Shown here: in pieces, positions 3,209-47,512 of the stretch
How positions within the stretch are numbered: the first letter of the stretch is position 1
How the letters are laid out: every line of letters starts with the position of its first letter
Source: Minisyncoccia bacterium
GTDB taxonomy: Bacteria; Patescibacteriota; Minisyncoccia; SW-4-49-11
Assembly (NCBI GenBank): GCA_044341565.1
Contig: JBIIRM010000008.1
Location: forward strand, 1-47,688
Length of the DNA stretch: 47,688 bases
Reading direction: 5' to 3'
Notes under the pieces: model-generated
What the model was told of the DNA's origin: nothing
Database searches by the model: none
Seen by the model: only the letters and a program-made list of their open reading frames with translations
Made by a program: the position numbers and the translations under genes

Positions 3209-5365
3209 ATGCCAAAAAAGAAAACAACAGCCAATAAACCAAAAATCAAATCAGAAGCAAAGCGTTCCATTGTAGGAGTTATATTAATTGCCATTGCTTT
3301 ACTGAGTTTTTTGTCATTCTTCTCATCAGCGGGAGTATTCGGGAAGGGACTTAATGGGGGTATTGGATTTCTTTTTGGTGTAGGTAAATTCATATTACCA
3401 TTTGCATTACTTTATATAGGGCTTACATTATTAGCTCGGCCAAAGGATAGGGGATTATATTATTTTCAACTATTCGTATTAATTATGGGACTATTATTAT
3501 TCTTAGGATTAATACAATTAATACAATTCTCAGATGCAAAAGAATCATTAGCTGAGGCCCAAAAAGGGCTTGGGGGTGGCTATATAGGTCATTATGTAAG
3601 TGTAGGAACGCAATATATATTTGGGTATTGGGGCGCTTTTGTAGCATTAATCACAGGATTTATTACAGCAGGTATTATTGTGATGAATCAATCTATTCAT
3701 CTTGACGGTATAGTAGATTGGATAAAAGAAGTATTTGCTCCTAATAATAGCGAAAATACTATTGCTATTGCTCCCACAGATACATCAGAGGTAAAGGCAG
3801 AAAATACTCGAATATTTCATCAAGATGCAGAAGATGAGGATAAATTAGATAACAAAAAAGTTGCTGATAAGGGGAATATTATTCCAAAAACTCCTGAATG
3901 GATGACAGAAAGTTTATTTAATTTACCCACAGTTGACTTACTAGAAAAAGGAAAAACAGATGATATTGCCCAAAGTGGAGATACCAAAAAAAGCTCAGAA
4001 ATTATTAAAAGTACTTTATCCACATTTGGTATTGAGGTGGAAATGGGGAAAATTGATGTGGGTCCATCAGTAACTCGATTTATGTTACGCCCTTCCAATG
4101 GAATTAAATTATCTCGTATTACATCATTACAAAGTGATTTGGCTCTTGCAATGGCAGCACAGGCTATTCGTATAGAAGCACCTATTCCGGGAATGTCATA
4201 TGTTGGGGTAGAAACTCCAAATGCTAAGCGGGCTACTGTCAGAATTCGCAATATTTTTGAATCAAAAGAATTTAATGAAAATGATTTCCATTTGCCACTT
4301 GCACTTGGACTTGATGTTATGAATAAAGTTATTGTATTTCCGCTAGAGAAAATGCCTCATTTATTAATTGCAGGAGCAACAGGAGCAGGTAAATCTATGG
4401 GATTGAATGCTATGATATTGAGTATGCTATACAAAAATCCTCCATCCAAGCTTAAATTTATTTTTATTGATCCAAAACGAGTAGAATTATCTACATATAA
4501 TGGTATTCCTCATCTCCTAACCCCTGCTATTGTGAGTCCTGAAAAGGCAATGAATGCTCTTAATTGGTGTGTAACAGAAATGGAAAGACGATATGAAGTA
4601 TTGGCTCGTATGGGTTCTCGTAATATTTTTACCTATAATGAAAAAATTGCCTCAGGAACTATTAAAGCTGGAGAAGATGAACAAGAATATGAAATTATGC
4701 CATTTATTGTAGTAGTAATTGATGAACTTGCTGATTTGATGAGTAGTCATAAAAAAGAAGTTGAGGGCTCTATTGTGCGTATTGCACAAATGGCAAGAGC
4801 AGTCGGAATACATCTTATTCTTGCTACACAAAGACCATCAACTGATGTTATTACGGGTCTAATTAAAGCTAATTTACCTTCTCGAGTAAGTTTTCAAGTA
4901 GCTTCCCAAATTGATTCAAGAACTGTTTTGGATATGATGGGAGCAGAAAAATTATTAGGAATGGGGGATATGCTATTCCTAGGGGGAGATCTTGGTAAGC
5001 CGCAGCGTATACAAGGGGCTTTTGTACCAGAGCATGAAGTAAAGGCAGTGGTAGAATGGCTAAAAAGTCAAGGGGAAAACGAATATAATCTAGCTATTAC
5101 AGAAACTGATACTCCAAAACAAATATATCATGATGGGGGAGTTGATTATGGGGAGGGAACAGATCAATTATTCGAACAGGCAAAAGATTTAGTATTACAA
5201 ACAGGCAAAGGTTCAGCCTCATTATTACAAAGAAGATTAAAGGTTGGATATGCCAGGGCCGCCCGATTATTAGATGAATTAGAAGAAGCAGGAATAGTTG
5301 GTCCGGCTGAAGGTTCAAAACCTCGAGAAGTATTTTCAGATGGACATATTGAAGAAAATGAGTAA
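3209..5365 (+). CDS. ftsK: DNA translocase FtsK/SpoIIIE
   Basis: Four N-terminal TM helices are followed by Walker A GATGAGKS, Walker B VVIDELADLM, and a C-terminal gamma domain (LLQRRLKVGYARAARLLDELEEAGIVGP). The ORF track starts at 3164 and the Met at 3209 abuts the stop of the HIT gene. Confidence 0.85.
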   Translation: MPKKKTTANKPKIKSEAKRSIVGVILIAIALLSFLSFFSSAGVFGKGLNGGIGFLFGVGKFILPFALLYIGLTLLARPKDRGLYYFQLFVLIMGLLLFLGLIQLIQFSDAKESLAEAQKGLGGGYIGHYVSVGTQYIFGYWGAFVALITGFITAGIIVMNQSIHLDGIVDWIKEVFAPNNSENTIAIAPTDTSEVKAENTRIFHQDAEDEDKLDNKKVADKGNIIPKTPEWMTESLFNLPTVDLLEKGKTDDIAQSGDTKKSSEIIKSTLSTFGIEVEMGKIDVGPSVTRFMLRPSNGIKLSRITSLQSDLALAMAAQAIRIEAPIPGMSYVGVETPNAKRATVRIRNIFESKEFNENDFHLPLALGLDVMNKVIVFPLEKMPHLLIAGATGAGKSMGLNAMILSMLYKNPPSKLKFIFIDPKRVELSTYNGIPHLLTPAIVSPEKAMNALNWCVTEMERRYEVLARMGSRNIFTYNEKIASGTIKAGEDEQEYEIMPFIVVVIDELADLMSSHKKEVEGSIVRIAQMARAVGIHLILATQRPSTDVITGLIKANLPSRVSFQVASQIDSRTVLDMMGAEKLLGMGDMLFLGGDLGKPQRIQGAFVPEHEVKAVVEWLKSQGENEYNLAITETDTPKQIYHDGGVDYGEGTDQLFEQAKDLVLQTGKGSASLLQRRLKVGYARAARLLDELEEAGIVGPAEGSKPREVFSDGHIEENE

Positions 5366-10088: not shown

Positions 10089-10410
10089 CCAAGGAGAATG
10101 GTAATCGCGCATATCCATATATATGGTGAGTGAGGAAAGTCTGGACACCTATTACTTTGTAATAAATGATAGTGGGTAATACCCACCATTGAGCTTGCTC
10201 AATCGGGATAGTATCGCAGAAACAAGACATTTGAGTATATCTCATCTAAGGTGAAAAGAGATAAACCCTATCAGGTGCAAGGCCGTGCTTTTCTGTATTG
10301 AAAAGAGTGCCGCCAAGAATATGCTGGTAACAGTATATCAAGATAAATGATTACCTATGTATATTTGCTTGCAAGTATGCATAACAGAATCCAGCTTATA
10401 TTCTTCTTGG
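10089..10410 (+). ncRNA. rnpB: RNase P RNA (bacterial type, compact)
   Basis: The 5' P4 strand GAGGAAAGUCUGGACACC matches the conserved AGGAAAGUCCGGGCUCC. The 3' P4 strand ACAGAAUCCAGCUUAUA matches ACAGAACCCGGCUUA. The P1 helix pairs ccaaggagaat (10089-10099) with attcttcttgg (10400-10410). It lies in a 390-bp gene-free gap. Confidence 0.6.
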
Positions 10411-10435
10411 ATAATTCTATAAACAATTACTATAT

Positions 10436-11851
10436 ATGAATAGATTCGAGTTATTATTTAGTGCTATACGAGTACCCATAGATTTTTTTGTCATTCTTTT
10501 GGCAGGAATATTATCTTATCAATTACGTATATCTGAATTTGCAATAGAGGTTCGTCCCATACCATATGATTTCAGTAGTGACTGGTATAATGGATTTGTT
10601 ATTGTATTTGCATTAGTAACCGTAATTATCCTTGCAATATCAGGAATGTATAGTGTCAGGAAAACTCCAGGAATTGTGAGCGAATTTTATCGTATTTTGA
10701 GTTCTGTATCAATCACAATTTTAATTATTATTTTATATTATTTCTTTTATTCTCGTGATTTATTCTCATCAAGATTTTTGATTATTTCCCTTTGGGCATT
10801 AGCTATTATCTTATTATTAATTGGAAGATTATTAGTACATAGCATACAGGATGCTATTGTAAGGCATTATAAATGGGGAATACATAGAGTTGTTATTATT
10901 ACAGGAGAAGATATAGCTGGTAAATTAGTACTTGATGCACTTAATACTAAAGACGGTATAGGATATCAAATAGTAGAAACACAAAAAGTATTGAATCTGA
11001 AAGGCTTAAGGCATTTAGCATTGACTAAACAAATTGACGAAGTAATTTTAGCAGATACCAAATTACCACAAGATCAATTAATTACAGTAAATTATCTGTG
11101 TGAGGAATATAAAATTGATTTTCAATATATCCCCAATATATTCGATATATATACACAGGTAGAGGTAAAAAATCTCTCAGGAGTATTATTATTTAGAGTA
11201 AAGCGTACAACCTTAGAAGGATGGGGAAGTATCTGGAAGAGATTATTCGATATTATTGTTGCTACATTAGCTATTATTATCCTCTCCCCAATTTATCTTA
11301 TTACCATTATTGCAATAAAACTTGATTCACCAGGACCAATTCTCTATAAAAGTCGTAGAGTGGGAGTAGCAAAAAAACCATTTGATGTATACAAATTCCG
11401 GAGTATGTATGAGGAATTATGTACGGATGAAGATAATGCAGAATCTATTGCCTTAGAGCAGAAAATATTAGCAGAAAAAGGTATCAAAAAAGGTCCCGTC
11501 AATAAAATTAAAGATGACCCTCGTGTTACTAAATTAGGGAAATTTATTCGTAAAACCAGTATAGATGAATTACCGCAATTCTTTAATGTACTCGTAGGAA
11601 GTATGAGTCTTGTAGGTCCTCGCCCTCATCAACCACGAGAAGTAGATAAATATAAACAACATCATAAAAAAGTACTCACAATCAAACCTGGAATAACCGG
11701 TATGGCGCAAGTTAATGGCCGCTCAGACTTGAGTTTTGAAGAAGAAGTATTATATGATACCTTTTATATAGAGAATTGGAGTATATGGCTGGATATTATT
11801 ATACTACTCAAAACGCCTTGGGCAATCATAGCTCCCCGCAAAGCTGATTAA
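10436..11851 (+). CDS. undecaprenyl-phosphate sugar phosphotransferase (bacterial sugar transferase, WbaP/EpsL-like)
   Basis: The N-terminal TM block and the C-terminal catalytic domain carry the hallmark motif [21 protein letters not shown]. Confidence 0.85.
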
Positions 11852-16277: not shown

Positions 16278-17408
16278 TTATCCAATTACTGGTATAGAGA
16301 ATCTAGGTTCGGGGCTTGATTTACGAGATTTTTTGGCTTCAAATGTATTGAGATAAGCATAGTGATATTTATGTACTTGTCCTTCAATAGATAATATATC
16401 TTGAATTATTGGCATATATTCTGAGGCTATGCGCTTGAGAATAGGATACATATCCTCAATAATATTGAGCCCGGTTACAATAGAGCTATAATTATAAGGA
16501 GTAAAGAATATTCCATTTGCTTTTATTAATTCTTGATTATATTCTCCTTTTGAAGCAAGAACAGGAATCCCAGCAATTAGAGCTAGGGATAGAGGATATT
16601 TATCTTCATTATTCGGAGAAATTTCTACAAATATATGAGCATTTTGAATCAGAGACTGTTCGGTATTCCCGCTTAATTCTCCTACAAAAAGCATAGTATC
16701 ATTTTGATAAGACTCACGTATAGATGGCTTTACTTTACCCAGTACAATAACAGGAAGATTCAGATTATGTTTGCGATATGCCTTTAACCATAATTCTAAA
16801 CTTTCAGAATCTCTATATTGCCCATTATGAACCAGAATATATTCTTGAGGATATAAATCTTTGAAATTATTTTGAGAATTTACAATAGAAGCAGTATCAA
16901 TTCCTGTTGGTATACTATATACTTTTGATTTAAAAGAAGCGTTTAGGAGAGTTTGTAATTCTGGATTATCTATAATCAAAGAATCAGAAAACTGAGCAGA
17001 TATATAAGAGAGTAGCATATAGCGTCGTCTATTCTTTTTGCTATTGACAAAAGTATATTGATGATAATCAAAAATAACCCTTACTTGAGGCATTTGTAAT
17101 GATACCCAAAAAGCCACCCAAGCATATTCTAGCGATCTAATATGTACAATATCAAGATTTTCTATTTTCCGGAGCTCACGAATAATGGACTTAACTTTAG
17201 GTTGACTGGGAATAATATGAATATTCTTATATTCCGTTAATTGGGTGTAATTAGGGTCTGAGAGCACATATACAGAATGTCCTCGTCTTGCCAATTGAGT
17301 CGCTACAATTTCACAATTATACTCATTTCTATCTCGAGTATTTTGATAAGGAATTCCTCTGGTACCAACAAATGCTATGACCATATGGGATATTAGTTCT
17401 ACAGACAA
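16278..17408 (-). CDS. glycosyltransferase family 1 (GT4-like)
   Basis: The N-terminus IAFVGTRGIPYQ is typical of GT4 enzymes. The C-terminal half has the GT-B fold pattern with conserved Glu and Lys positions. It is convergent with the upstream gene with zero spacing. Confidence 0.6.
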   Translation of the reverse strand: MSVELISHMVIAFVGTRGIPYQNTRDRNEYNCEIVATQLARRGHSVYVLSDPNYTQLTEYKNIHIIPSQPKVKSIIRELRKIENLDIVHIRSLEYAWVAFWVSLQMPQVRVIFDYHQYTFVNSKKNRRRYMLLSYISAQFSDSLIIDNPELQTLLNASFKSKVYSIPTGIDTASIVNSQNNFKDLYPQEYILVHNGQYRDSESLELWLKAYRKHNLNLPVIVLGKVKPSIRESYQNDTMLFVGELSGNTEQSLIQNAHIFVEISPNNEDKYPLSLALIAGIPVLASKGEYNQELIKANGIFFTPYNYSSIVTGLNIIEDMYPILKRIASEYMPIIQDILSIEGQVHKYHYAYLNTFEAKKSRKSSPEPRFSIPVIG

Positions 17409-17460
17409 AAACTATAGCATAAAATAGCAGTTTTGTCAATTTCTGATATTATTTTTCCAC

Positions 17461-17960
17461 CCCTTTCCCTGCTACCCCTCAATTTATCTCCCGTAGGGAG
17501 AGAGGGGAATTAGCTAAGTCCACACCCGTCGACTTTGTCGACACCCTCGCCGGCGAGGCCTGCCTGCGGTAGGCAGGGACAGTTTTATTGTCCTCCCTTG
17601 GGGGAGCTTTGGTTCCTCCTATATTTGTTTAGGAGGGGGTGCCCGTAATAGACTGAAGGTCTGGGAAAGGGGTCGGGAAAACAGAAGTTTTCCCGTGGAG
17701 GAAGGTTGGGAAACCGTGAGGTTTCACAGGAGCAAATCCCATTTGCGACGGGGGAGGGAGGATAGAGTTTAAGTTTGTATTTTATCCACCCCGTCCAGCA
17801 AAGCTGTCCACCCCTCAAGAGGGGAATATATACAATGTACTGTCCTAAAAATTCCCCTCATGGGTTGTGAGTAGATAGGAGTCAGTATATAACAAAGTGC
17901 TTTGTCCGAAAAATTCCCCTCTTGAGGGGTGCCGTCGCTAGACGGCGGGGTGGAAAGTAT
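17461..17960. repeat. GC-rich hairpin-dense intergenic repeat element, copy A (largest; contains all modules)
   Basis: A roughly 55-60% GC island in a roughly 35% GC genome. Its palindromes and stems include gtcgactttgtcgac, ccctcgccggcgagg, cctgcctgcggtaggcagg, ggacagttttattgtcc, ttcctcctata..taggagg, gggaaaac..gttttccc, gcaaatcccatttgc and cccctcttgagggg. The core 17664-17755 recurs at 38596-38660 and 47131-47302. Confidence 0.6.
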
Positions 17961-18925
17961 TACAATAACTCTCTATTCACAAAATACACCCCTGCATATC
18001 CATTCGCAAAGCTATCAGCAGTAATAGTATTTTTCCCCTCTACAGTTAATTCTTTGACCGCAATATTACCTATTTTTGTCCCAATAATCAGATTGTGACT
18101 GACAGAATCTAATTGCCAATATCCTGGCTTAAGTTTAATATCAGATATATGCTCAAGATCTAATCTATCCAATACTACTTTTTTGTCCGTATTGAGATAG
18201 GTATATACTTGTGGCCAAATAGTATAAGCTCTATAGGCATTATTAATGTCCTCGGCTGATTGACTCTCCCAATCAATAAGCCCATCCATTTTTTGAACCA
18301 TTTTCACAAAACTAGCTTTAGCATCATCTTGAACCCAGGGAGTAATTTCTCCATTCATAAAAGGAATAAGATTTTGTCTCAATATATCAGCCGCAACAGT
18401 GATAATTTTTGCCTCAAGTTCAATATAGGTATCGGTAGGAGATATAGTGATTTCCTCTTGAGCAATAATAGGTCCATGATCCATCAAATGATCAATTTCC
18501 ATCAAACTAACAGCAGTACTCTTGTCTCCATTACGGAGGCTCGCCTGTATAGGAGATGGCCCACGATACTGAGGTAGTCTTGAAGGATGAATATTCAACA
18601 CTCGATGAGGCATAATATCTAATATAGCTTGCGGAATAATTTTACCATAGGCAATAATTAGCCAAATATCAGCAGATAATCCTCGCAATAATTCACTAGT
18701 CTCAGGAGCTTTGAGAGAATGAGGACTATACACGGGAATAGAATGACTTTCCCCAAATACTTTGAGAGGACTAGGAGTTAATATTCTTTTACGCCCCTGC
18801 GGAGTATCAGGAGTAGTAATAATAGCCACAATATCAGCCCAATCGAGTAGAGACTCAGCAATAGCAACCGTAAGCTGAGGAGTACCCCAAACTACAATAC
18901 GGGGTTTAGACATACATTTTCCCAC
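17960..18925 (-). CDS. fmt: methionyl-tRNA formyltransferase
   Basis: The N-terminus (MSKPRIVVWGTPQ) has a formyltransferase-type Rossmann fold. The motifs NIHPSRLPQYRGPSPIQ and the C-terminal Fmt domain are present. The start may be the internal Met at 18913. Confidence 0.85.
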   Translation of the reverse strand: MGKCMSKPRIVVWGTPQLTVAIAESLLDWADIVAIITTPDTPQGRKRILTPSPLKVFGESHSIPVYSPHSLKAPETSELLRGLSADIWLIIAYGKIIPQAILDIMPHRVLNIHPSRLPQYRGPSPIQASLRNGDKSTAVSLMEIDHLMDHGPIIAQEEITISPTDTYIELEAKIITVAADILRQNLIPFMNGEITPWVQDDAKASFVKMVQKMDGLIDWESQSAEDINNAYRAYTIWPQVYTYLNTDKKVVLDRLDLEHISDIKLKPGYWQLDSVSHNLIIGTKIGNIAVKELTVEGKNTITADSFANGYAGVYFVNRELL

Positions 18926-30061: not shown

Positions 30062-31408
30062 ATGGCAGGGAATAATTCTCTTGATTCATTTACCAAAAAT
30101 CGCAACGTAATTATTATTGCTGGTGTCGCTATATTAGCTATTGTTATATTGATGCTTGGTAATGCGCTTGGATTCAAAATTGGAGGTGAGAAAAAAGTAC
30201 AAAAAGCAAATTTGGTAGTATGGGGAGTCTGGGATGAAAGTGAGACAATGACGAAATTGGGAAGTGATTTTCGTAAAATATATCCTAATGTAAGTATAGA
30301 ATATCGTAAATTCAAGCCACAAGATTATGAGACAGAACTTATTAATGCTTTAGCTGAGGGACGAGGTCCAGATATATTGGCAATGGAGAGAACTTGGCTT
30401 GGTAAACATAAGAATAAGTTAGCCCCAATGCCAGAAGAAATTATGACACTCAAAGAGTATCAAGATACTTTTGTAGATGTGGTTAATCAAGATTTTATTG
30501 ATGAGGGTAAAATATATGGATTCTCTCTATACACCGATACTTTAGCATTATTATATAACAAAGATGCTTTTAATGATGCTGGAATTGCAAATCCACCAGT
30601 AACTTGGGAAGAATTACAAAGTATAGTACCCAAATTAACTAAAATAGATCAATTTGGTGAGATTAAACAGGCGGGAGTTGCATTAGGTACAGGAGATAAT
30701 ATAAATCGTTCACCAGATGTTTTGATGGCATTAATGTTACAGTCTGGAGCTCAATTTACTGACCCTAAAGATACTAGTAGAATTACTTTTTCTCAAAGTA
30801 AAAATGTCAATGGACAAAATATAAATCCTGCTCAATTATCTTTAGCTTATTATACCGATTTTGCTAATCCTCGAAAAGGAGTATATACCTGGAATTCAAC
30901 CTTAAATAATTCAATAGATGCTTTTTATGAAAGAGAAGTTGCTATGATATTTGGATATTCATATCAGGTAGAAGCAATTAAAGCAAAAGCCCCAAGACTT
31001 AATTTTGCAGTAGCTCCTCTCCCTCAGGTATCTACAGATTCTGGCCTTGCTAATTTTGCAAATTATTGGGGATATGGAGTAAGTGGTCAATCTAAATACC
31101 CAAAAGAAGCCTTTGCATTCCTCAAATCAGCCACTGAAAAGGAAAATGCTCAAGAGTATTTCTTGAAAACCAAGCGCCCAACAGCCAGAAGAGATTTAGT
31201 AGATACACAATCACAAGACATTGATTATGGAGTATTTGTAAAACAAATATTACAAGCTAAAACCTGGAGACAACCCGATAATAATTCAGTAGATAAAATA
31301 TTTATCAATGCTATTAATGGAGTAAATTCAGGATTACTTGACTATAGTAAAGCTATTTCGCAAGCTCAAACAGAAATACAGACATTAGCTGATAATGTGA
31401 AAAAATGA
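30062..31408 (+). CDS. extracellular solute-binding protein (family 1, sugar-type), membrane-anchored by N-terminal TM helix
   Basis: The TM anchor IIIAGVAILAIVILML is followed by a MalE-like SBP_bac_1 pattern (VVWGVWDESE...PDILAMER...). No permease or ATPase gene lies adjacent. Confidence 0.55.
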   Translation: MAGNNSLDSFTKNRNVIIIAGVAILAIVILMLGNALGFKIGGEKKVQKANLVVWGVWDESETMTKLGSDFRKIYPNVSIEYRKFKPQDYETELINALAEGRGPDILAMERTWLGKHKNKLAPMPEEIMTLKEYQDTFVDVVNQDFIDEGKIYGFSLYTDTLALLYNKDAFNDAGIANPPVTWEELQSIVPKLTKIDQFGEIKQAGVALGTGDNINRSPDVLMALMLQSGAQFTDPKDTSRITFSQSKNVNGQNINPAQLSLAYYTDFANPRKGVYTWNSTLNNSIDAFYEREVAMIFGYSYQVEAIKAKAPRLNFAVAPLPQVSTDSGLANFANYWGYGVSGQSKYPKEAFAFLKSATEKENAQEYFLKTKRPTARRDLVDTQSQDIDYGVFVKQILQAKTWRQPDNNSVDKIFINAINGVNSGLLDYSKAISQAQTEIQTLADNVKK

Positions 31409-32730
31409 AATATATAAAGTTCAGTATAGTTTTTGGTATAATATTCTTAGTAGTTTCATTTTTTAGTATTAACTATACTAATGCACAGAGTGCAGATGGA
31501 GCTTGTAGTGCAGGGGCAACATCATTAGAGCAAAACTGTACTTTTCAAAATGGAAGCTCTCGTTTAAATGGAAAATGCCAGGTTAAAGATAAAAATAATC
31601 CAGGTTTAGGATTAACTTGTCGTACTAGCTTAGGATCATCCTGCTCAGGTGATACTTGTCAAAATGGATTAGCCTGTATTAATCAGGTTTGTTCCAGTCC
31701 AAGAGGGGCTAAAACTCAAGGTCAATCTTGTTCAGGGAATGGAAATGAATGTATTGCAGGTCTTGAATGTAGAAATTTTATATGTACAAAAGAAGCTGCC
31801 ATTACTGGTGGAGGGTCTGGGCAAACTGGAGGTGGTCAAGTCGGTACCCCTGGAGGCTCAACAGGGGCAGAAACAGGCCTTGTTAAATGTGGAGTGAGTC
31901 GAGATTGTACTATTTGTGATATATTTATCTTAATTCGAGATATCTTTAATTTTGCTTTAGGGCTACTAGCCTCACTCGCGGTATTAAGTGTTGTTATTGG
32001 TGGGGTCTATGTGTTGACTTCAGCAGGTAATCCTGGAGCGGTAAGTACAGGATATGGCATTATTACCAATGCAGTAATTGGACTATTACTCGTAATGGCA
32101 AGCTTTCTCTTATTTAGTTTCCTTCTTGTGGGGCTTGGATTTCAAGAACAAAATTTCTCAGCTGTACTTACTTTTCAACCAGGTAAAGTATTCGAGGTAA
32201 AATGTGATAATGCTAGTACTTTTAATGATAATGGATCAAATGGAGGAGGGTCTGCTGTACTGGGTAATGGTGGGAGTAACTCATCAACTATAAGTTGTGC
32301 GAGTTTAAATGATTCGGTTAAGGCGGATTTAAATAATGCTAGTTCTCAGACGGGTGTTCCTTCTGAACTATTGGCTGGAATTATGCAAAGAGAATGTCCT
32401 GCAGCCTTTAATAATGCTAATGCTTGTCCAAATGAAAATGGCTCTGGAGCAGCTGGAGCAGGTCAATTTTTACAAAGTAGCTGGAATGAGCTGGGATGTA
32501 GTGGAAGTAGAACGAATCGAAGAGATGCCCTTGTTTGTATGGGGAAACATTTAAAACGGTATAATAAATGTTCTAGTCAATGTAATGGATATTCTAATTT
32601 TTCATCCAGAGCTTGTTCTGATTGTGTGGCAGGAGATTATTGTGGTGCATGTTCAGGTTCATCAGCTTGTGGAGGTAATTATTGTGATGGGGTGTGGAGT
32701 AACTATCAAAAATTTAAAACATGTAAATAA
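31405..32730 (+). CDS. Cys-rich secreted protein, VirB2/TrbC-like two-helix segment, C-terminal lytic transglycosylase (SLT/VirB1-like) domain
   Basis: A signal peptide is followed by repeated C-x-C modules (CSGDTCQNGLACINQVCSS; CSGNGNECIAGLECRNFIC). The hydrophobic hairpin ALGLLASLAVLSVVIGGVYVLTSAGNPGAVSTGYGIITNAVIGLLLVMASFLLF is homologous to the downstream pilin paralogs. The C-terminus LLAGIMQRE...SGAAGAGQFLQSSW resembles SLT motifs (catalytic E, then GAxGLMQ). Confidence 0.5.
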   Translation: MKYIKFSIVFGIIFLVVSFFSINYTNAQSADGACSAGATSLEQNCTFQNGSSRLNGKCQVKDKNNPGLGLTCRTSLGSSCSGDTCQNGLACINQVCSSPRGAKTQGQSCSGNGNECIAGLECRNFICTKEAAITGGGSGQTGGGQVGTPGGSTGAETGLVKCGVSRDCTICDIFILIRDIFNFALGLLASLAVLSVVIGGVYVLTSAGNPGAVSTGYGIITNAVIGLLLVMASFLLFSFLLVGLGFQEQNFSAVLTFQPGKVFEVKCDNASTFNDNGSNGGGSAVLGNGGSNSSTISCASLNDSVKADLNNASSQTGVPSELLAGIMQRECPAAFNNANACPNENGSGAAGAGQFLQSSWNELGCSGSRTNRRDALVCMGKHLKRYNKCSSQCNGYSNFSSRACSDCVAGDYCGACSGSSACGGNYCDGVWSNYQKFKTCK

Positions 32731-32734
32731 TAAT

Positions 32735-33841
32735 ATGAATAAAATCTTCAGTCTATTTTTACTAATAGCATCTTTCTATTCTATTTCTCCAGTATATGCA
32801 GATACTAGTATATACTCAAGTTTCTTATATCCAAGTTTTGCTGTAAATAATGAAATTTTATATTTTGATCAATATGCAGGAGCTATTGTGAAACAAAATG
32901 TTATTACTGGTGAGAAGTCAGAGATATTTGATTTAATACCTTCTGCTACTAACTTAGTATCAATTTCTCCTGAACAATCTAAAATATTACTTTATCCTCC
33001 TAATATATCATTTCCAAAATATCAAGCACCATTTTTTGATAGTTCAAGAAAATCTCCCGATAATCAATGGTGGGTATATGATTTTAATACAACAAATAAA
33101 ATACTACTAGATGATAAAATTAATTTAGTTGGCTGGTATTCTGATAATGAAATTATATATGTATTTAATAATAAAGATATCACAGTTGCCCCAACCAATG
33201 ACCTATCTAAATTTAATATTCTATACTCTAATATACCATCTAATGTGGATATTAATAAACAAATTATAGCAAATGATAACCATCAAATAATTCCATTAGT
33301 TGATGGTTATCTTGTGGGAAATAAGAAAAACTTTGTATATCAAAAAAGTACTAATTATCAAATTTCAGCCAATCCAAAATTGAATTATTTTTTGGAATAT
33401 AATAATAGTCAGATAAAAGTTTTTGATTGGGATAGTAAGCAAGTAGGTAGTATTATTAATATCAGTAACAGGAAAGCTTTGTTACTGAATAATGATACTA
33501 TAGCTATATTGGCTACAAATGGTAATTTGATACAATATAATTTACAAGGGCAGGAGCAATCAAATGTATCATTAAATCCAATAGTTACTGATATATATTC
33601 GGTTGATCAATCTGGAAATGAACTATTAATTAATCAAAATAATCAAATACGTACTTATAATTTATTAAAAAAAGAGCAGGGAACCATCCTATTATCCACC
33701 AATACTCCTACTCCTAATACTGACACAAATTCAGAGACAGAACAATCCAACACATTAGGGAATATTGCTATTTTAATAGGAGGAATAGTATTCCTTGCTG
33801 GGGGACTGGGGCTATTTATTTGGAAATTAAGAAAAAGATGA
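32735..33841 (+). CDS. secreted protein with C-terminal TM anchor, hypothetical
   Basis: The track ORF starts at 32585. The Met at 32735 gives a clean signal peptide (MNKIFSLFLLIASFYSISPVYA) directly after the upstream stop. The body is Asn/Ile-rich and probably beta-rich. The C-terminal anchor is IAILIGGIVFLAGGLGLFIWKLRKR. Confidence 0.45.
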   Translation: MNKIFSLFLLIASFYSISPVYADTSIYSSFLYPSFAVNNEILYFDQYAGAIVKQNVITGEKSEIFDLIPSATNLVSISPEQSKILLYPPNISFPKYQAPFFDSSRKSPDNQWWVYDFNTTNKILLDDKINLVGWYSDNEIIYVFNNKDITVAPTNDLSKFNILYSNIPSNVDINKQIIANDNHQIIPLVDGYLVGNKKNFVYQKSTNYQISANPKLNYFLEYNNSQIKVFDWDSKQVGSIINISNRKALLLNNDTIAILATNGNLIQYNLQGQEQSNVSLNPIVTDIYSVDQSGNELLINQNNQIRTYNLLKKEQGTILLSTNTPTPNTDTNSETEQSNTLGNIAILIGGIVFLAGGLGLFIWKLRKR

Positions 33842-33871
33842 TATAATTAAAAATAATTAAATACAGATACT

Positions 33872-34711
33872 ATGAAATTAATCATATCTACAGCATTTGG
33901 AATTGTCTTTGCACTAGTATTCTTTAGTAATTCTAATATAACACTTGCTCAATGTGGAAGTGGTCCAAGCTGTACAGGGAATTTTGTTTGTGTGAACGCA
34001 GATGGTACTCCTAAATGTTTGCTAAATCAGGTTAGTAATAATGGTTTATGTGAGGGCGACTCTTCTGTGAAATGTTCAGCAAATCAAGCTTGTATTCAAA
34101 ATAATGCAACAGAAATTGTATGTGCCCCTTTAGCGGGATCATCAGCTAATACAAATTTACCAGGTTCTGGAAGTACAACAACTTGTCCAACCTGTAAATC
34201 TGGTGAAACATGTATTAAGAGTGCAGCAGGACCACTCGTATGTAGATCCGCCGCTACAAATTGTACTCCTGCTTGTACAACAGGTAAGGTGTGTGTTAAA
34301 GCAACGCCAACAGCAACTACTGGAACTTGTGTAGATAATGCGCCTACTCAAGCTGCTGGAGGAGCTGGTGGTAATGGTGCTGGAGGGAATGGATCTTCAG
34401 GAGGAAGTGGTGGTGGCTTATTAGAAGGTCTCAATGCTTTTGGTAGTGCAGATTCTGGACTTAATACAGAGGGAACTCTCATTGGGTTTATTTCTAATAT
34501 TATTCGTTGGATATTAGGACTTCTTGGAACTGTGTTCTTTGTAATCATAGTTTTACAAGGGTATCTTTATATGACATCTTCAGGAGATGCGAGTAAAACA
34601 GCAGCAGCTACGGGGGCTATTACTAATGCAGTAATAGGACTACTGATTATTATGGGAGCTTTCCTCATTACTAATTTTGTGACAAGTGGTTTGATTGCCG
34701 CTGGGTCTTAA
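33872..34711 (+). CDS. Cys-rich and Gly-rich secreted protein with C-terminal VirB2/TrbC-like pilin domain
   Basis: A signal peptide is followed by four roughly 25-aa Cys modules (CGSGPSCTGNFVCVN...; CPTCKSGETCIKS...) and a linker GGAGGNGAGGNGSSGGSGGG. The C-terminus is ...IRWILGLLGTVFFVIIVLQGYLYMTSSGDASK...NAVIGLLIIMGAFLITNFV. Confidence 0.5.
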   Translation: MKLIISTAFGIVFALVFFSNSNITLAQCGSGPSCTGNFVCVNADGTPKCLLNQVSNNGLCEGDSSVKCSANQACIQNNATEIVCAPLAGSSANTNLPGSGSTTTCPTCKSGETCIKSAAGPLVCRSAATNCTPACTTGKVCVKATPTATTGTCVDNAPTQAAGGAGGNGAGGNGSSGGSGGGLLEGLNAFGSADSGLNTEGTLIGFISNIIRWILGLLGTVFFVIIVLQGYLYMTSSGDASKTAAATGAITNAVIGLLIIMGAFLITNFVTSGLIAAGS

Positions 34712-34721
34712 TATCTTATAT

Positions 34722-35069
34722 ATGATAGAAGCATTTATATCCAATTTCATCATAGTAACAGCTAAAGCCCAGGAGACATCGCCTCCTCCTATATTAGCTA
34801 TACCTACAGGAACAGGAGTGGGGGAGCAAGGAGATCTGTTTACTTTTGTGTCAGCTATTGTGCAATGGGGATTGGGATTAATAGGGATAGTATTATTTGT
34901 ACTTATACTCTTTTCTGGATTCCAATATGCAACAGCAGGGGGCGACTCTAAAAAAACTGAAGAAGCTATTAGTAGAATTACTTCTGCAGTAATCGGAGTA
35001 TTCATTGTAGGGGTGGCTTTTATACTATCCAATGCAGTATTAGGATTTGTTTTTAGTCTAGGATCTTAA
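34722..35069 (+). CDS. VirB2/TrbC-like pilin family protein
   Basis: The core reads VQWGLGLIGIVLFVLILFSGFQYATAGGDSKKTEEAISRITSAVIGVFIVGVAFILSNAV. The track ORF starts at 34695, overlapping the upstream gene. Confidence 0.5.
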   Translation: MIEAFISNFIIVTAKAQETSPPPILAIPTGTGVGEQGDLFTFVSAIVQWGLGLIGIVLFVLILFSGFQYATAGGDSKKTEEAISRITSAVIGVFIVGVAFILSNAVLGFVFSLGS

Positions 35070-35169
35070 TATACTGACTTATCCACAATAGTATCACTTG
35101 CATAGTAATATAAGATATGATAGTATAAAAACATAGAACATATTATTCAATAATTATTAAGATATTCTT

Positions 35170-35553
35170 ATGAATACTTCCCAGATAAAATCAATAGCAA
35201 CAAGAGCATTATTACCTGTATTAGTATTAGCTCCTACTTTAGCTGGAGCTGCAACTCCCATAAAAGATACTAGAGTCATAGGTGAAATACCTCAAGTAGC
35301 TGGTACTAATCAATCTACTGACCTTGTGGCTACAGTACAAGTGGTTATTCAATGGGCATTAGGATTTATCGGAATTGTAATATTCATTATTTTCTTATTT
35401 GCAGGATTTGAATATGCAACAGCAGGAGGAGATGAAGGAAAAGCAAAAACTGCACAGTCTCGAATGATTAACGCGGTAATTGGACTTATTATTATATTCT
35501 TTGCCTTTGTAGCTTCAAATGCAATATTGTCATTCGTATTCCCAGGAAATTAA
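35170..35553 (+). CDS. VirB2/TrbC-like pilin family protein
   Basis: A signal peptide is followed by the core IQWALGFIGIVIFIIFLFAGFEYATAGGDEGKAKTAQSRMINAVIGLIIIFFAFVASNAIL, two TM helices separated by a short loop. Confidence 0.55.
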   Translation: MNTSQIKSIATRALLPVLVLAPTLAGAATPIKDTRVIGEIPQVAGTNQSTDLVATVQVVIQWALGFIGIVIFIIFLFAGFEYATAGGDEGKAKTAQSRMINAVIGLIIIFFAFVASNAILSFVFPGN

Positions 35554-35580
35554 TCAAATTGATAGATACTATGAAACAAT

Positions 35581-35606
35581 AAAAAGGGATTATATCCCTT
35601 TTTATT
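35581..35606 (+). terminator. rho-independent terminator-like hairpin
   Basis: The sequence aaaaaggga-ttata-tcccttttt is followed by a T run, 28 nt after the upstream stop. Confidence 0.5.
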
Positions 35607-35697
35607 GTTTAGAGAATACATATTCAAATAGTATAATCTTCTTGTCAGATAATAGAATACTTGATATACTTGTAATATATAGAATAGTAAAATAGAT

Positions 35698-36114
35698 ATG
35701 AGAGTCTTATTGATTATAATAGCTTTATTGATGGGGGTATTTGTATTAAGTTCTAATATATCTCTAGCTCAAAGAGCCCCTGATGCCACTCTCCCTGGTC
35801 CAGGAACAATCCCAATTAATACCGGAATAGCTGAGGGACCAAGCTTGATAGAAACAGTGTCTATTATTATAAGGTGGATATTAGGATTTATTGGAATTAT
35901 AATATTTATTATATTCCTATATGCAGGATTTGAATATGCAACAGCAGGAGGGGATGAGAAGCAGGCTGAATCAGCTCAAAAAAGAATGGTAAATGCAATC
36001 ATAGGACTGATTATTATATTCTTTGCATTTGTATTGTCGAATGCAGTATTAAGCTTTGTATTTCCTCCAGACGATACAGTAGATGATCCTAATATGCCAT
36101 TAAATGTAAATTAG
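35698..36114 (+). CDS. VirB2/TrbC-like pilin family protein
   Basis: A signal peptide is followed by IRWILGFIGIIIFIIFLYAGFEYATAGGDEKQAESAQKRMVNAIIGLIIIFFAFVLSNAVL. The motif is near-identical to that of the 35170 gene. Confidence 0.55.
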   Translation: MRVLLIIIALLMGVFVLSSNISLAQRAPDATLPGPGTIPINTGIAEGPSLIETVSIIIRWILGFIGIIIFIIFLYAGFEYATAGGDEKQAESAQKRMVNAIIGLIIIFFAFVLSNAVLSFVFPPDDTVDDPNMPLNVN

Positions 36115-36115
36115 T

Positions 36116-36556
36116 ATGAAATATCTATCAATAGTAATAATTGCAATAATGATACTAATGAGTAATCCTTTTATTAGCTTTGCAGGTACCCCATCAGGGG
36201 GAGGAACTACTCCAGCTACGGGTGGTACTCCATCAGGGGGAGGAACTACTCCAGCTACGGGTGGTACTCCCACAACCCCAACTGACAATACTTCTGCTCA
36301 AAGTGTAGGATTTGTGAATCCAATTCGATTTAATTCTATCCCTGAGCTTATAGCAGGTATTATCAATGCTCTCTTGGGTATACTCGGAGCTATTACTGTG
36401 GCAATATTAGTGATGTCAGGATTTAAATATATGACAGCTTCTAATCCAGGAGCAGTAGGGCAAGCTTTAGATGGTATTAGGAATGCAATTGTAGGACTTA
36501 TGATTATTATGGGGGCTTTTCTCATCACACAATATATTATATCTGCTTTGGTGTAA
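36116..36556 (+). CDS. VirB2/TrbC-like pilin family protein with Pro/Thr/Gly-rich tandem-repeat N-region
   Basis: A signal peptide is followed by (TPSGGGTTPATGG)x2 and then the core LIAGIINALLGILGAITVAILVMSGFKYMTASNPGAVGQALDGIRNAIVGLMIIMGAFLIT. Its start is 1 nt after the upstream stop. Confidence 0.5.
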   Translation: MKYLSIVIIAIMILMSNPFISFAGTPSGGGTTPATGGTPSGGGTTPATGGTPTTPTDNTSAQSVGFVNPIRFNSIPELIAGIINALLGILGAITVAILVMSGFKYMTASNPGAVGQALDGIRNAIVGLMIIMGAFLITQYIISALV

Positions 36557-37323: not shown

Positions 37324-37390
37324 GATAAAATGAACGAATTACTTTCTATATATAGCATATTTTAGGTAAAATGTCAATATTTATAGACAA

Positions 37391-37418
37391 TAAAAAAGCC
37401 GTGACATTGTCACGGCTT
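37391..37418 (-). terminator. rho-independent terminator (minus strand)
   Basis: On the minus strand the hairpin agccgtgaca-atg-tcacggct is followed by TTTTTTATT, just downstream of the stop of the 37435..38460 gene. Confidence 0.55.
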
Positions 37419-38460: not shown

Positions 38461-38576
38461 TTTGTGAATGAACGAGGGACTTCTTATTCATAACACAAAA
38501 TCATAAATTTGTCAACTCATAATAACAGGTGTATATACATAAAATTATTCCGACTCAGGTCAATGAGTACTTATAA

Positions 38577-38786
38577 TGTCCTCCCTTGGGGGAGGTGGGG
38601 AAAGGGGTCGGGAAAACGAGAGGTTTCACAGGAGCAAATTTTATTTGCGACGGAGGAGGATAATTCAAAAAGTCCACACCCACCGCTAACGCGGTACCCC
38701 CTCGCCAGCGAGTGACAGATTTAATATCCTCCCCCGGGGGAGGATAAAATAGTACAGGCGACTGAAAGGTCGCCCCTACAAAATTG
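38577..38786. repeat. GC-rich hairpin-dense intergenic repeat element, copy B
   Basis: This copy contains, in order, cctcccttgggggagg, the gggaaaggggtcgggaaaac..ggtttcacaggagcaaatTTtatttgcgacgg core, aagtccacaccc, ccctcgccagcgag, cctcccccgggggagg and ggcgactgaaaggtcgcc. Its order is shuffled relative to copy A. Confidence 0.6.
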
Positions 38787-38821: not shown

Positions 38822-38850
38822 TTGACAAATAGCACTATATATACTACAAT
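38822..38850 (+). promoter_or_regulatory. sigma70-type promoter of the rpsL-rpsG-fusA operon
   Basis: TTGACA (38822-38827), a 17-nt spacer and TACAAT (38845-38850) lie about 80 nt upstream of the rpsL ATG. Confidence 0.5.
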
Positions 38851-42117: not shown

Positions 42118-42210
42118 GTAATCCTCCTCCGTTCCTCCTATATATAATAGGAGGAACACCTCCCCCCAAGGGAGGACAGAAATTTTGTCCCTCGCCAGCG
42201 AGGGACAATA
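42118..42210. repeat. GC-rich hairpin-dense intergenic repeat element, copy C (short)
   Basis: This copy contains ttcctcctatatataataggaggaa, cctccccccaagggagg, ggacagaaattttgtcc and gtccctcgccagcgagggac. These are the same modules found in copies A and B. Confidence 0.55.
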
Positions 42211-46163: not shown

Positions 46164-46308
46164 ACTGATAATTAATTACTACATAGAGTTGCTGCATTCA
46201 GTATATACGATATATAGGTTTCTAGCAAACAAAATAATAGATTGCTAAATGAAAAAGAGGAGCTCATATTGAGCTCCTTGGTGAGAGGGGGGTAGAGCGC
46301 ATCCTTAT

Positions 46309-46563
46309 TCAGTCAGGCTCATAGAATGCACTGGAGTAGGGGAGGGCTTCAGTAAGGTTGAATGCCTCTTTTCGAGACATGGAGTTCAATTGCCGTGTGC
46401 GACAACAGCTACAGAATCTTCCATTTTGTTCGAATACCCGCACTTCTCCATGAACTCGAATGTGGATATCTGCGCCTACCCAGCGTGAGACTTGATTTGT
46501 GCAATTAGGCGTTGCACATGGGGCATTGAGTACATAATCAAGAATCCGATCAAGAAATGACAT
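46309..46563 (-). CDS. small Cys-rich hypothetical protein (possible zinc-binding)
   Basis: The 84-aa protein has the Cys pattern C..C-x4-C...C-x-CC (PCATPNCTN...FCSCCRT). Local GC is higher than in its neighbours. No family was recognised. Confidence 0.3.
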   Translation of the reverse strand: MSFLDRILDYVLNAPCATPNCTNQVSRWVGADIHIRVHGEVRVFEQNGRFCSCCRTRQLNSMSRKEAFNLTEALPYSSAFYEPD

Positions 46564-46635
46564 GACAGAAAGTCGAGTTTACAAAAATAACCATACCATA
46601 TTTTTGCAAAAATGTCAATATGTATAAACAATTTA

Positions 46636-46890: not shown

Positions 46891-46974
46891 AAAATAATTT
46901 AGTATATATGTATAGTAAACCGATATATAACTCTAGTCAATAAATCAAATATCTGATAAAATAATCAAGATAAT

Positions 46975-47060
46975 GGAGAGTTCGCATAGTTGGTCTAGTG
47001 CGCACGCTTGGAAAGCGTGTATACCGCAAGGTATCAAGAGTTCGAATCTCTTACTCTCCG
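46975..47060 (+). tRNA. tRNA-Ser (anticodon GGA), class II with long variable arm
   Basis: The acceptor stem pairs GGAGAGT with ACTCTCC. The anticodon stem-loop is CACGC-TTGGAAA-GCGTG, giving anticodon GGA. The long variable arm is TATACCGCAAGGTAT. The T-arm is CAAGAGTTCGAATCTCTTA. CCA is not encoded. Confidence 0.8.
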
Positions 47061-47067
47061 CAAAAAT

Positions 47068-47098
47068 TAAAAATAGGGGTTTTTGCCCCTATTTTTAA
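47068..47098 (+). terminator. rho-independent terminator after tRNA-Ser
   Basis: The hairpin aaaaatagggg-tttttg-cccctattttt has an 11-bp stem with a T-rich tail. Confidence 0.55.
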
Positions 47099-47130
47099 TT
47101 TCCGTGAGTTAGTAAAGAGAAATTCGAACT

Positions 47131-47410
47131 CGGGAAGGGGTCGGGAAACGGAAGTTTCCTGTGGCGGAAGTAATCAATACCCCTAGATAGGAAGGCAATG
47201 AGGAGCTTGCTCCGAATGTCGGAAACCGTGGGTGTCCGAGATGGGGTTGTAGGGGTATTGAGGGAACTGAGGGGGTTTCAAAGAGCAAATCCCATTTGCG
47301 ACGAGTTCGGAATCTCTTACTATCTATATTCCGACACTCGGGAATAAATCCCTCGCTGCCTTCCTGCACGGGGGATTTTGCCTTCATACATACGATGTAT
47401 GAAATCCTGA
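47131..47410. repeat. GC-rich hairpin-dense intergenic repeat element, copy D, containing a duplicate of the tRNA-Ser 3' end
   Basis: The segments gggaaggggtcgggaaacggaagtttcctgtgg...ggaaaccgtgggtg...ggtttcaaagagcaaatcccatttgcgacg are homologous to the copy A core. The sequence gagttcggaatctcttactatc (47303-47324) is a 20/22 match to the tRNA-Ser 3' end (47038-47059). Confidence 0.6.
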
Positions 47411-47512
47411 AGGAGTTATTTAGATTCAAACTTCATTTTTAATTGGACTAAATAAATTTTAGTTGGTATTCTATTTATTAGGTGGTATATCAGTTAATCT
47501 AAAAATAATTTT

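Follow-up and report, generated by a model that had tools for sequence, protein, structure and literature searches.

The described systems closest to the subject of this report are CTX-type phages, tyrosine-integrase islands, the short interspersed repeats of bacteria, and integron attC sites. The subject is a family of short, gene-less, structured elements of the Candidate Phyla Radiation (CPR; Patescibacteria), which we analysed starting from a 47,688-nt stretch of DNA of a Minisyncoccia bacterium (Patescibacteriota; SW-4-49-11), hereafter the window (GCA_044341565.1, contig JBIIRM010000008.1, positions 1–47,688). Four intergenic islands in the window, A to D, are rich in G and C (GC) and contain hairpins of this family. 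The family is built around a three-hairpin core, and many units carry on either side of the core an arm that copies part of the adjoining gene, often a tRNA gene. With moderate confidence, we interpret the islands as copies of a non-autonomous mobile DNA element family that is specific to CPR bacteria and is mobilised in trans.

In the CTX phage, an integrative mobile element exploiting Xer (IMEX), a folded single-stranded hairpin attP is reportedly integrated by the host recombinases XerCD (Val et al. 2005). Like CTX-type IMEX, the present elements possess a pair of inverted, target-like sites that are separated by about 90 nt and can fold into a stem (the arms flank the core in 50 units), their junctions run in the order inverted site, ~90 nt, hybrid site, chromosome, and no recombinase is borne by the element. 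The targets, however, are not dif but genes for at least 18 tRNA identities, GTPase P-loop codons, L11, and TrxB, and the arms follow the local tRNA or gene sequence with no dif consensus. In addition, phage genes are missing from the element (150–250 bp), and its 90-nt spacer is made up of three conserved hairpins that covary.

Direct repeats of tRNA 3' ends and replacement gene ends are hallmarks of tyrosine-integrase elements. The present elements share with the islands of this type (tycheposons, P4-like islands, and SXT at prfC) the direct repeat of the tRNA 3' end, the replacement end borne by the element, the tandem arrays behind one tRNA, and the sublocations in the T-loop, the anticodon loop, and the acceptor. 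Unit D of the window displays the arrangement expected of an integrative element, in that 47303–47324 repeats 47038–47058 while the tRNA-Ser is intact. Unlike these islands, the present elements have no integrase or other gene in cis, the whole insert and an attP site are of roughly equal size, the structured core is abutted by an additional, antisense copy of the target, and one core subtype is found at many targets.

Repetitive extragenic palindromes (REPs), bacterial interspersed mosaic elements (BIMEs), and miniature inverted-repeat transposable elements (MITEs), such as the BIMEs of E. coli, pneumococcal BOX, Neisseria Correia, and the Rickettsia palindromic element (RPE), are likewise short, gene-less, hairpin-forming intergenic repeats with many copies. 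The resemblance extends to the shifting order and orientation of the modules, the terminator-like behaviour of some of them, and the occurrence of GC-rich islands in an AT-rich genome, for which the GC clusters of yeast mitochondria are a compositional analogue. In contrast to these repeats, the core is a phylum-conserved three-hairpin unit and not a species-level palindrome, and the ancestral form would be specific to gene ends, with target-derived arms. The window copies also differ from MITEs in having no common termini, consistent terminal inverted repeats, or fixed-length target duplication, and no parent insertion sequence was found. The accessory module at 38755–38779 has a REP-like form (an imperfect palindrome of 20–40 nt with a conserved GTAG/CTAC head), which the core and the other modules do not have.

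Integron attC sites are defined by a folded single-strand structure and are tied to small cassettes, and both traits have parallels here (RhuM in loci L058, L012, and L033, and MazF in L035; L-numbers denote comparison loci of ~8 kb around core matches in CPR metagenome-assembled genomes (MAGs) or metagenomes). However, neither the R''/L''-L'/R' organisation nor GTTRRRY is present, the ends of the core being (G)GGAA.. and ..GACG. The sequence is highly conserved in the present elements, whereas in attC the structure alone is, and no IntI was found in the loci. The combination of a phylum-conserved three-hairpin core, target-derived arms, restoration of the gene end, and no linked gene appears to be undescribed.

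The three-hairpin core and its distribution

The core spans ~90 nt and consists of the G-rich leader GGGAA(A)GGGGTC, hairpin 1 (GGGAAA(A)C-tetraloop-GTTT(T)CCC), the linker GTGGNGGAAGG, hairpin 2 (..GAAACC-tetraloop-GGTTTC..), hairpin 3, which in the window lineage is GAGCAAAT-NNN-ATTTGC, and a terminal GACG. The tetraloops are often, if not always, of the GNRA type (GGGA, GGAA, GTGA, and GAGA). A covariance model of the core was built from 40 copies. Among 73 hits of the model, 19 of the 23 pairs had changed on both sides, as compared to 4.2 ± 1.5 after column shuffles and at most 11 when the partners were slid by 1–3 columns, and 91.6% of the cells were paired overall, figures that lean towards the structure because the alignment was fitted to the model. 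Compensatory exchanges are plain by eye in divergent copies such as that of L022, and the G-U pairs fall on the G-rich strand. Single sequences folded moderately better than their shuffles (z of −2 to −3), with both strands alike. RNAalifold analysis of the ~240-nt dispersed unit gave long-range pairs with no compensatory change.

The exact hairpin-3 pattern was scanned over the GTDB contigs of one genome per species (596 Gb), in which ~17 chance matches are expected. It was found at 72 loci, about 50 of which had the full core, all of them in CPR MAGs (Paceibacteria/Parcubacteria and relatives); the matches outside the CPR came without the rest of the core. The number of core copies in a single MAG reached at least 17. 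The exact pattern of the 5' domain matched at least 120 metagenome contigs, from which the sample for the analysis of tRNA linkage was drawn. The element is widespread and phylum-wide in CPR/Patescibacteria. The exact 5' core pattern had no match in IMG/VR, where the hairpin-3 pattern gave one chance-like match (covariance-model E-value of 0.7), and a phage origin was rejected on these results.

Searches against Rfam 15 at the gathering thresholds detected only RNase P RNA (10089–10414) and tRNA-Ser in the window. Permissive scans of 17400–18000 and 46950–47480 returned only noise (E no better than 0.002, bit scores far below gathering), and eight related loci gave only tRNAs. The searchable literature contained no report of such elements, or of MITEs or REPs, for CPR bacteria. 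These results agree with the original prediction, made from the window sequence before this analysis, which could place the islands in no known repeat or RNA family. It was to be given up if no further copies existed or if the islands matched a known RNA; the searches clearly showed the opposite, with many copies in CPR bacteria and no Rfam match.

Several candidate identities of the core were rejected. A gene for transfer-messenger RNA (tmRNA) or a tRNA-like gene is contradicted by the negative results of ARAGORN and Rfam, and most units have no acceptor 5' strand. The likeness of GGATTCGAAC-GGGA to the 5' region of tmRNA is a curiosity only and implies no membership. Kinship with RNase P RNA, raised by a likeness of some motifs to the E. 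coli S-domain, was dismissed, the window's own RNase P RNA being AT-rich and unrelated. A 19-codon frame in some copies is broken by indels of 1–2 nt and by a variable, non-conservative loop, and the core was not accepted as coding.

Target-derived arms at tRNA and protein genes

Among the 78 units listed from the metagenome matches, 51 followed a tRNA gene on the same strand within 200 nt, and none followed one on the opposite strand. None of these units was inverted relative to the tRNA, which argues against an invertible switch. Outside the lineage of the window, most cores are linked to a tRNA, and the tRNAs represent at least 18 amino-acid identities. The arm architecture was parsed in 50 units from metagenomes and genomes. 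Their constant layout is tRNA, spacer, antisense tRNA copy, core, T-loop-like motif, and sense copy of the tRNA 3' end. The spacer between tRNA and core (19–133 nt) frequently contains a terminator composed of an A-run, a hairpin, and a T-run. The antisense arm covers the tRNA from about G53 towards the 3' end and, in nearly all of the 50 units, stops 0–3 nt before the core, typically with ..GAAC. The core is followed by the T-loop-like motif (GTTCGAAT or GTGAGAT) and by a sense arm of 15–30 nt, which comprises the 3' strands of the T-stem and the acceptor, frequently with CCA. Direct repeats of the tRNA 3' segment of at least 11 nt were present in 34–36 units. Both arms are specific to the adjoining tRNA and are able to pair and close the core; the fold of L011 and that of an L182-type unit contain the predicted closing stem.

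Junctions elsewhere in the tRNA were found in the anticodon loop (unit 1 of L022) and the acceptor strand (L031). One distinctive core subtype (85–90% identical) occurs beside Asn, Gly, and Phe tRNAs, or Trp, Gln, Gly, and Arg tRNAs, with arms that match the local gene. Most antisense arms stop 5–13 nt short of the tRNA terminus. The arm of L031 (TGGCGGGGACG) is the exact complement of the terminus, with TGG opposite CCA, and those of L117 (TGGTT) and L022 are partly so.

The very stable mini-hairpin GCGAAGC recurs as hairpin 3 in many metagenome units (e.g., L100, L103, L118, L088, and L156), and it is also found as an insertion (GTGAGAT-AGCGAAGCG-T-stem) that separates the T-loop-like motif from the sense arm. 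In L100 (oriented 11204–11360), the tRNA 3' end GCAGGTTCGATCCCTGCCTCCGGAGCA comes after non-tRNA sequence and ARAGORN made no call, while the core unit follows as usual. The tRNA of L100 probably contains an intron; intron-containing tRNAs have been reported for Patescibacteria (PMC13011429).

Of the units without a tRNA, some occupy the 5' end of a conserved protein gene that runs on the opposite strand, namely the gene for EF-G, at the AH(I/V)DAGK codons (L125 and L107), for a TypA-like GTPase, again at this motif (L093), for ribosomal protein L11 (L127), or for a TrxB-like flavoprotein (L165). In all of these units, an orphan N-terminal fragment with its own start codon is located on the sense-arm side and the intact gene on the opposite side, and the antisense arm matches the junction. 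The two EF-G copies of L125 are identical over ~25 nt beside the junction and then exhibit many differences with the reading frame kept, a pattern that suggests recombination with a foreign replacement end rather than a decaying duplication. The length of the duplicated target varied from ~9 to 65 nt.

Orthologous sites differed in their occupancy and arrangement. In L008, the fusA-mgsA spacer lacks island C. The window, L056, and L008 all have an island in the spacer upstream of the rpsL promoter, the core of L008 being inverted and its modules rearranged, and the spacer 3' of fmt, the site of island A, is occupied in L030 by an inverted core. One tRNA-Ser showed three different arrangements in the window, L011, and L039, the last of which is the closest relative of the window among the loci compared (94% identity over 4 kb).

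Clustering of ~970 open reading frames (ORFs) around ~170 copies yielded only housekeeping or accessory genes and, in the metagenome loci, no recurrent adjacent gene family, and neither an integrase nor a recurrent gene was present between tRNA and core in the ~78 units listed. Only accessory genes were found near the dispersed copies, namely those for MazF/PemK, RhuM (in gene-plus-element arrays), and NYN domain proteins, and the small or GC-rich neighbouring ORFs had no match in Pfam or PHROGs. RhuM-family genes alternate with cores in L058 (1500–5700), L012 (2400–5100), and L033 (900–3800), as do MazF/PemK toxin genes in L035 (2400–3950); at one and the same locus beside dus, genomes differ in how many copies of the gene they carry. 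These arrays look cassette-like, or like the outcome of unequal crossing-over between elements. In L019, a 186-aa ORF of no known family (4788–5348; 54% GC in a genome of ~30% GC) directly abuts a unit of core and tRNA-Ser fragment and adjoins a D12 adenine methyltransferase. This ORF may be the edge of a foreign island.

The four islands of the window

The GC content of the window is ~35%, and the four islands were its sharpest peaks in 300-nt bins (0.46–0.50; 0.50 and 0.46 in 17401–18000, and 0.49 in 47101–47400). A mechanical repeat search of the window found a 54-nt block shared by 17704, 38606, and 47257, the CCTCCC..GGGAGG block, and an inverted match of 30 nt that links islands A and C. 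Each module named in the original prediction (the 5' part of the core, the GAGCAAAT..ATTTGC hairpin, AAGTCCACACCC, CCCTCGCCRGCGAGGG, GGACAG..TGTCC, CCTCCC..GGGAGG, and TCCTCC..GGAGGA) was scanned for with a regular expression. All were confined to the four islands, with 0 to 0.13 occurrences per module expected from 200 composition-preserving block shuffles, which bears out the claim of four GC-rich islands that share modules. The description of the islands as four copies of one element was correct in part. The covariance model found exactly three cores in the window, at 17657–17766 (132 bits), 38552–38668 (59.7 bits), and 47125–47319 (56 bits), in islands A, B, and D; island C contains accessory hairpins only, and island D represents a separate subfamily. 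The islands had also been said to have no coding capacity, and indeed the ORFs called across them had no Pfam match and their counterparts in other genomes clustered solely with one another. The suggestion that they are a REP/MITE-like mobile element or a structured RNA family is strengthened by the covariation, the presence/absence and rearrangement at orthologous sites, the duplicated target, and the orphan gene fragments.

In island A (17457–17957, plus strand), GC-rich hairpin modules form a mosaic that surrounds a single full-length core. The island is situated between the stop codon of fmt (17960, minus strand) and the promoter match of a glycosyltransferase gene (17439–17411, minus strand; 11 of the 12 consensus positions scored in the promoter scan), the flanking genes being assigned by Pfam. 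Core A (17663–17750, plus strand) scored 132 bits, shows the covariation, and has a fold z-score of −2.2. It is composed, on the plus strand, of the leader GGGAAAGGGGTC (17663–17674), hairpin 1 with the arms GGGAAAAC/GTTTTCCC (17675–17694), the linker GTGGAGGAAGG (17695–17705), hairpin 2 (17706–17729), and hairpin 3, GAGCAAAT-CCC-ATTTGC (17730–17746), followed by GACG (17747–17750). The left terminal module, CCACCCC...CCCCTC..GAGGGGAATT (17457–17516, minus strand), is an inverted copy of the right one, AAAAATTCCCCTCTTGAGGGG-hairpin-GGGGTGGA (17908–17957, plus strand), a further inverted copy being located at 17785–17827; the left module was also found in L005, L016, L027, L030, and L055. On the minus strand, the right module is terminator-like just 3' of fmt, with a stem at 17929–17916 and then a T run.

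Island B (38577–38781, plus strand) is located upstream of the rpsL promoter (38822–38850; 11 of 12). It contains a CCTCCC..GGGAGG hairpin, a deleted core, AAGTCCACACCC, CCCTCGCCAGCGAG, a second CCTCCC..GGGAGG hairpin, and a REP-like hairpin. Core B (38598–38652, plus strand) had been described as copy A with an internal deletion of 30 nt; a deletion is present, and 33 nt are missing (module spacing of 28 nt versus 61). The missing nucleotides fall between the repeats GGGAAAAC and GGGAAACC, and their loss has joined the 5' arm of hairpin 1 with the 3' arm of hairpin 2. In L056 (2419–2528), the flanks of which are ~91% identical, the orthologous core is full length. The REP-like accessory hairpin, GTAGGGGCGACC-TTTCA-GTCGCCTG (38755–38779, minus strand), has the GTAG head and the palindrome, followed by a T run, and is also present in L006, L008, L027, L055, and L070. 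Island C (42118–42210, strand unassigned) corresponds, as its reverse complement, to the left part of island A and comprises four accessory hairpins and no core: TCCTCC..GGAGGA (42133–42155), CCTCCC..GGGAGG (42159–42175), GGACAG..TGTCC (42174–42190), and CCCTCGCCAGCGAGGG (42189–42204).

Islands A and B belong to a derived subfamily with no gene-derived arms, in which the core is set among other GC-rich hairpins. The accessory modules of such dispersed copies occur in either orientation and in changing order, and some are terminator-like. Both islands come after the upstream gene and are followed immediately by a strong promoter match (that of the glycosyltransferase gene for A and that of rpsL for B). 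Where both neighbours run in the same direction, the dispersed cores were co-oriented with them in 20 cases and opposed in 4 (two-sided binomial, ~0.0015), copy A being one of the exceptions; no replication-strand bias of the cores was detected from the GC skew (12/21 and 15/25). The dispersed element in the copies of JBIKVS01 and CAZYEN01 (L002, L025, L045, L052, L059, and L003) is longer. It is apparently bounded by an inverted pair of ~20 nt, GATGAGAAACATCGTAGACAA ... TTGTCTACGATCATCTCATC, ~450 nt apart, the right copy of which closely precedes a promoter. The window does not contain the 21-nt end motif, a terminal inverted repeat, of the JBIKVS subfamily.

Unit D has tRNA-Ser(GGA) (46975–47061, plus strand; ARAGORN and Rfam) as its target. 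Between the two lies a bidirectional terminator-like A-run, hairpin, and T-run (47062–47101, plus strand), which forms one long palindrome together with the tRNA-Ser 3' end and the left arm; the same layout is also found in L011, L028, L031, and L117. The left arm (47102–47131, plus strand) is a degenerate antisense copy of the last ~25 nt of tRNA-Ser and ends with ATTCGAACTC directly before the core. Core D (47132–47303, plus strand; 56 bits) belongs to the tRNA-linked subfamily and has the leader GGGAAGGGGTC, a 7-bp hairpin 1, and hairpin 3 at 47283–47299. Its hairpin 2 contains a structured insertion of ~100 nt (47171–47273), which is common to L069 and L081. The right arm (47303–47324, plus strand) is a sense copy of the tRNA-Ser 3' end, GAGTTCGGAATCTCTTACTATC versus GAGTTCGAATCTCTTACTCTC at 47038–47058.

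The right arm is followed by a second conserved structured element, the X module (47325–47432, plus strand), which is unrelated to the core and travels with tRNA 3' ends. Its sequence, AAAATCCCCC...GTCTCGGACACC.ACGGTTTCCGACACTCGG...CACGGGGGATTTT, ends with the T-loop-like ATTCGAA, and it had no Rfam match. Copies are located directly after tRNA-Ser in L039 (4400–4530) and L026, and also in L031 (1160–1240), L022 (3' of unit 3), and L114; the position of the module relative to the core unit varies between close relatives. A third small structured cargo (GGAGCCCGGTGTGAGTTTCCCTGAAAGGGAAGGCGAACACAGCGAGACGGGGTCGCGG...) was observed between tRNA-Ser(CGA) and the core unit of L040 (~1510–1690), bracketed likewise by GGAGATTCGAAAGTC and a tRNA-Ser 3' fragment, which suggests that the arm architecture is common to several element families.

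Other features of the window were also noted. A 370-nt segment of ~44% GC (46263–46632) is absent from the 94%-identical relative L039. It has a terminator-like hairpin of its own (46278–46258) and holds a minus-strand ORF of 84 aa (46309–46563), for which neither Pfam nor PHROGs gave a match. Two unrelated minus-strand genes are preceded by the copies (37352–37391 and 46593–46632; 85% identical) of a 40-nt direct repeat, which contains a strong minus-strand promoter match, TTGACA-17-TATGGT (46618–46590). A run of paralogous genes with C-terminal domains of the type IV secretion system (T4SS)-pilin type (PF18895) extends over 31405–36556 and is the source of repeat families D1, D3, D6, and D9; one of these genes contains a perfect 39-nt tandem duplication (36185–36262).

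Proposed mobility in trans and its alternatives

The following scheme could account for the units. In the ancestral form, the core would be located at a highly conserved gene segment, usually the T-arm or 3' end of a tRNA and sometimes the 5' end of a protein gene. An antisense copy of the target would stand 5' of the core and a sense copy 3' of it, and these arms could close the core into a long stem-loop, while the interrupted gene would be kept intact by a replacement gene end and a short spacer across the unit. With its arms and replacement end, the unit resembles a miniature integrative element reduced almost to its attachment site. Insertion would be carried out by machinery encoded elsewhere that recognises the folded core, and the target-matching stem would supply the choice of site. 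We favour a folded single-strand intermediate, since the junction order (antisense site, ~90 nt, hybrid site, chromosome) is like that of CTX; integration as a hairpin is suggested here by the shared geometry. In the window lineage, a derived subfamily would have lost the gene-derived arms and multiplied, with other GC-rich hairpins, in the spacers between terminators and promoters. The outcome would be mosaics resembling BIMEs and subject to rearrangement, inversion, and decay. Two such mosaics would be islands A and B, with island C a core-less mosaic, and island D a classical tRNA-Ser unit.

Several points weigh against this interpretation. Neither an excised form nor an empty tRNA site nor a circular junction was found among the copies examined, and the ORF clustering around ~170 copies provided no candidate enzyme. 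Copies A and B have no target-derived arms, and thus what ties them to the integrative form is the homology of the core. For integration as a hairpin, the comparison with CTX offers an analogy of geometry only. Moreover, conservation of the core, unpaired G-rich linkers included, greatly exceeds that of the flanking genes, and a cellular RNA function is an equally possible reason for this. The 20-to-4 co-orientation of dispersed copies with the flanking genes, and not with the GC skew, is a hint that a transcript is under selection. Strong conservation of the unpaired linkers, together with the orientation bias, leaves room for an RNA-level role, instead of or besides mobility.

A serious but rather unlikely alternative is that the core is primarily a functional structured RNA of CPR bacteria whose copies arose by ordinary duplication. 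In one version, it would act as a cis module co-transcribed with tRNAs or mRNAs, the antisense arm pairing by turns with the tRNA 3' half and the downstream sense copy, and would control tRNA maturation or stability, or mimic or sequester the tRNA 3' end. The extreme conservation, which extends to the unpaired purine-rich linkers, the covariation, the G-U pairs on one strand, and the frequent GNRA tetraloops would all be natural for an RNA, as would the fixed orientation to the tRNA, the co-orientation of the dispersed copies with their neighbours, the terminators that end the units as they end genes, and the core of L101, which abuts tRNA-Ala as a 5' leader. However, an RNA function leaves unexplained the orphan N-terminal fragments of EF-G, L11, and TrxB beside opposite-strand copies, the presence/absence and inversion at orthologous sites, the internally deleted or degenerate copies, and the single core subtype beside unrelated tRNAs; in addition, most islands are located after a terminator and before the next promoter. 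The accessory hairpins (CCTCCC..GGGAGG, CCCTCGCC..GCGAGGG, GTAGGGGCGAC..GTCGCC, and others) might instead constitute an independent REP/BIME system, served by a REP-associated transposase and merely co-localised with the cores. The module at 38755–38779 with its REP-typical GTAG head and palindrome, the occurrence in both orientations and changing order, as in BIME mosaics, the core-less set of modules in island C, and the terminator-like nature of several modules are in favour of this. We nevertheless find it doubtful: the 8-kb loci searched contained no gene for a REP-associated tyrosine transposase (RAYT), no transposase-like family recurred in the ~970 ORFs, and almost every occurrence of the modules in these loci is next to a core. 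Such a system would also leave the core and the tRNA-linked units unaddressed.

Two further explanations start from the arms. The units might be scars of integrase-mediated integration, left by larger prophages or islands that lost all but the attachment-site arms. The direct repeats of tRNA 3' ends and the replacement gene ends are present as this requires, tandem units stand behind one tRNA (L022, L040, and L031), the 54% GC ORF of L019 abuts a unit in a 30% GC genome, and MazF, RhuM, NYN, and methyltransferase genes adjoin dispersed copies; tycheposon islands with partial tRNAs have been described (bioRxiv 10.1101/2020.12.28.424599). This origin is improbable, as none of the ~78 listed units has an integrase or recurrent gene in its spacer of 19–133 nt, and the same minimal decay product is unlikely to have arisen in hundreds of lineages. 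Moreover, double-stranded arm sites should lack hairpin covariation, and the antisense arm is foreign to classical attP sites. The antisense arm might, on the other hand, be a primer-binding site for the tRNA 3' end in a retroelement that moves through an RNA intermediate with a reverse transcriptase encoded elsewhere. Retroviral primer-binding sites span the same tRNA region as the antisense arm, the arms of L031 and L117 complement the tRNA 3' terminus from the TGG opposite CCA, and the length of the duplicated target varies. A retroelement is nonetheless very improbable: most arms stop 5–13 nt short of the terminus, the protein-gene targets offer no priming tRNA, and no reverse transcriptase was found near any copy examined. 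Group II introns have been reported in a published paper to be absent from Patescibacteria, which also counts against it.

Within the interpretation as an element mobilised in trans, we tentatively put forward a more specific possibility, itself unlikely, that the unit is a protein-less, homology-programmed integrating module. The arms would serve as an exchangeable guide by which the folded core, of DNA or RNA, is directed, jointly with an enzyme of the host or one encoded in trans, to any target of sufficient conservation, such as tRNA T-arms, GTPase P-loop codons, or L11, and would be re-derived from the new target upon moving. If true, this would represent a natural reprogrammable insertion system with no dedicated linked gene, phylum-wide in reduced genomes.

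The elements also matter for annotation, as they yield spurious ORFs and orphan fragments of tRNA, EF-G, and L11 and probably break assemblies, and the covariance model of the core is a ready marker for CPR contigs. CPR bacteria have genomes among the smallest and most streamlined known, in which a conserved, structured element without genes is nonetheless present in dozens of copies. If our interpretation holds, the family would be an undescribed and very widespread class of miniature integrative element, in which the site is chosen via target-derived arms, the interrupted gene is repaired, and outside machinery is relied upon. The persistence and movement of mobile DNA in reduced genomes, and the host enzyme that is exploited, would thereby become testable.

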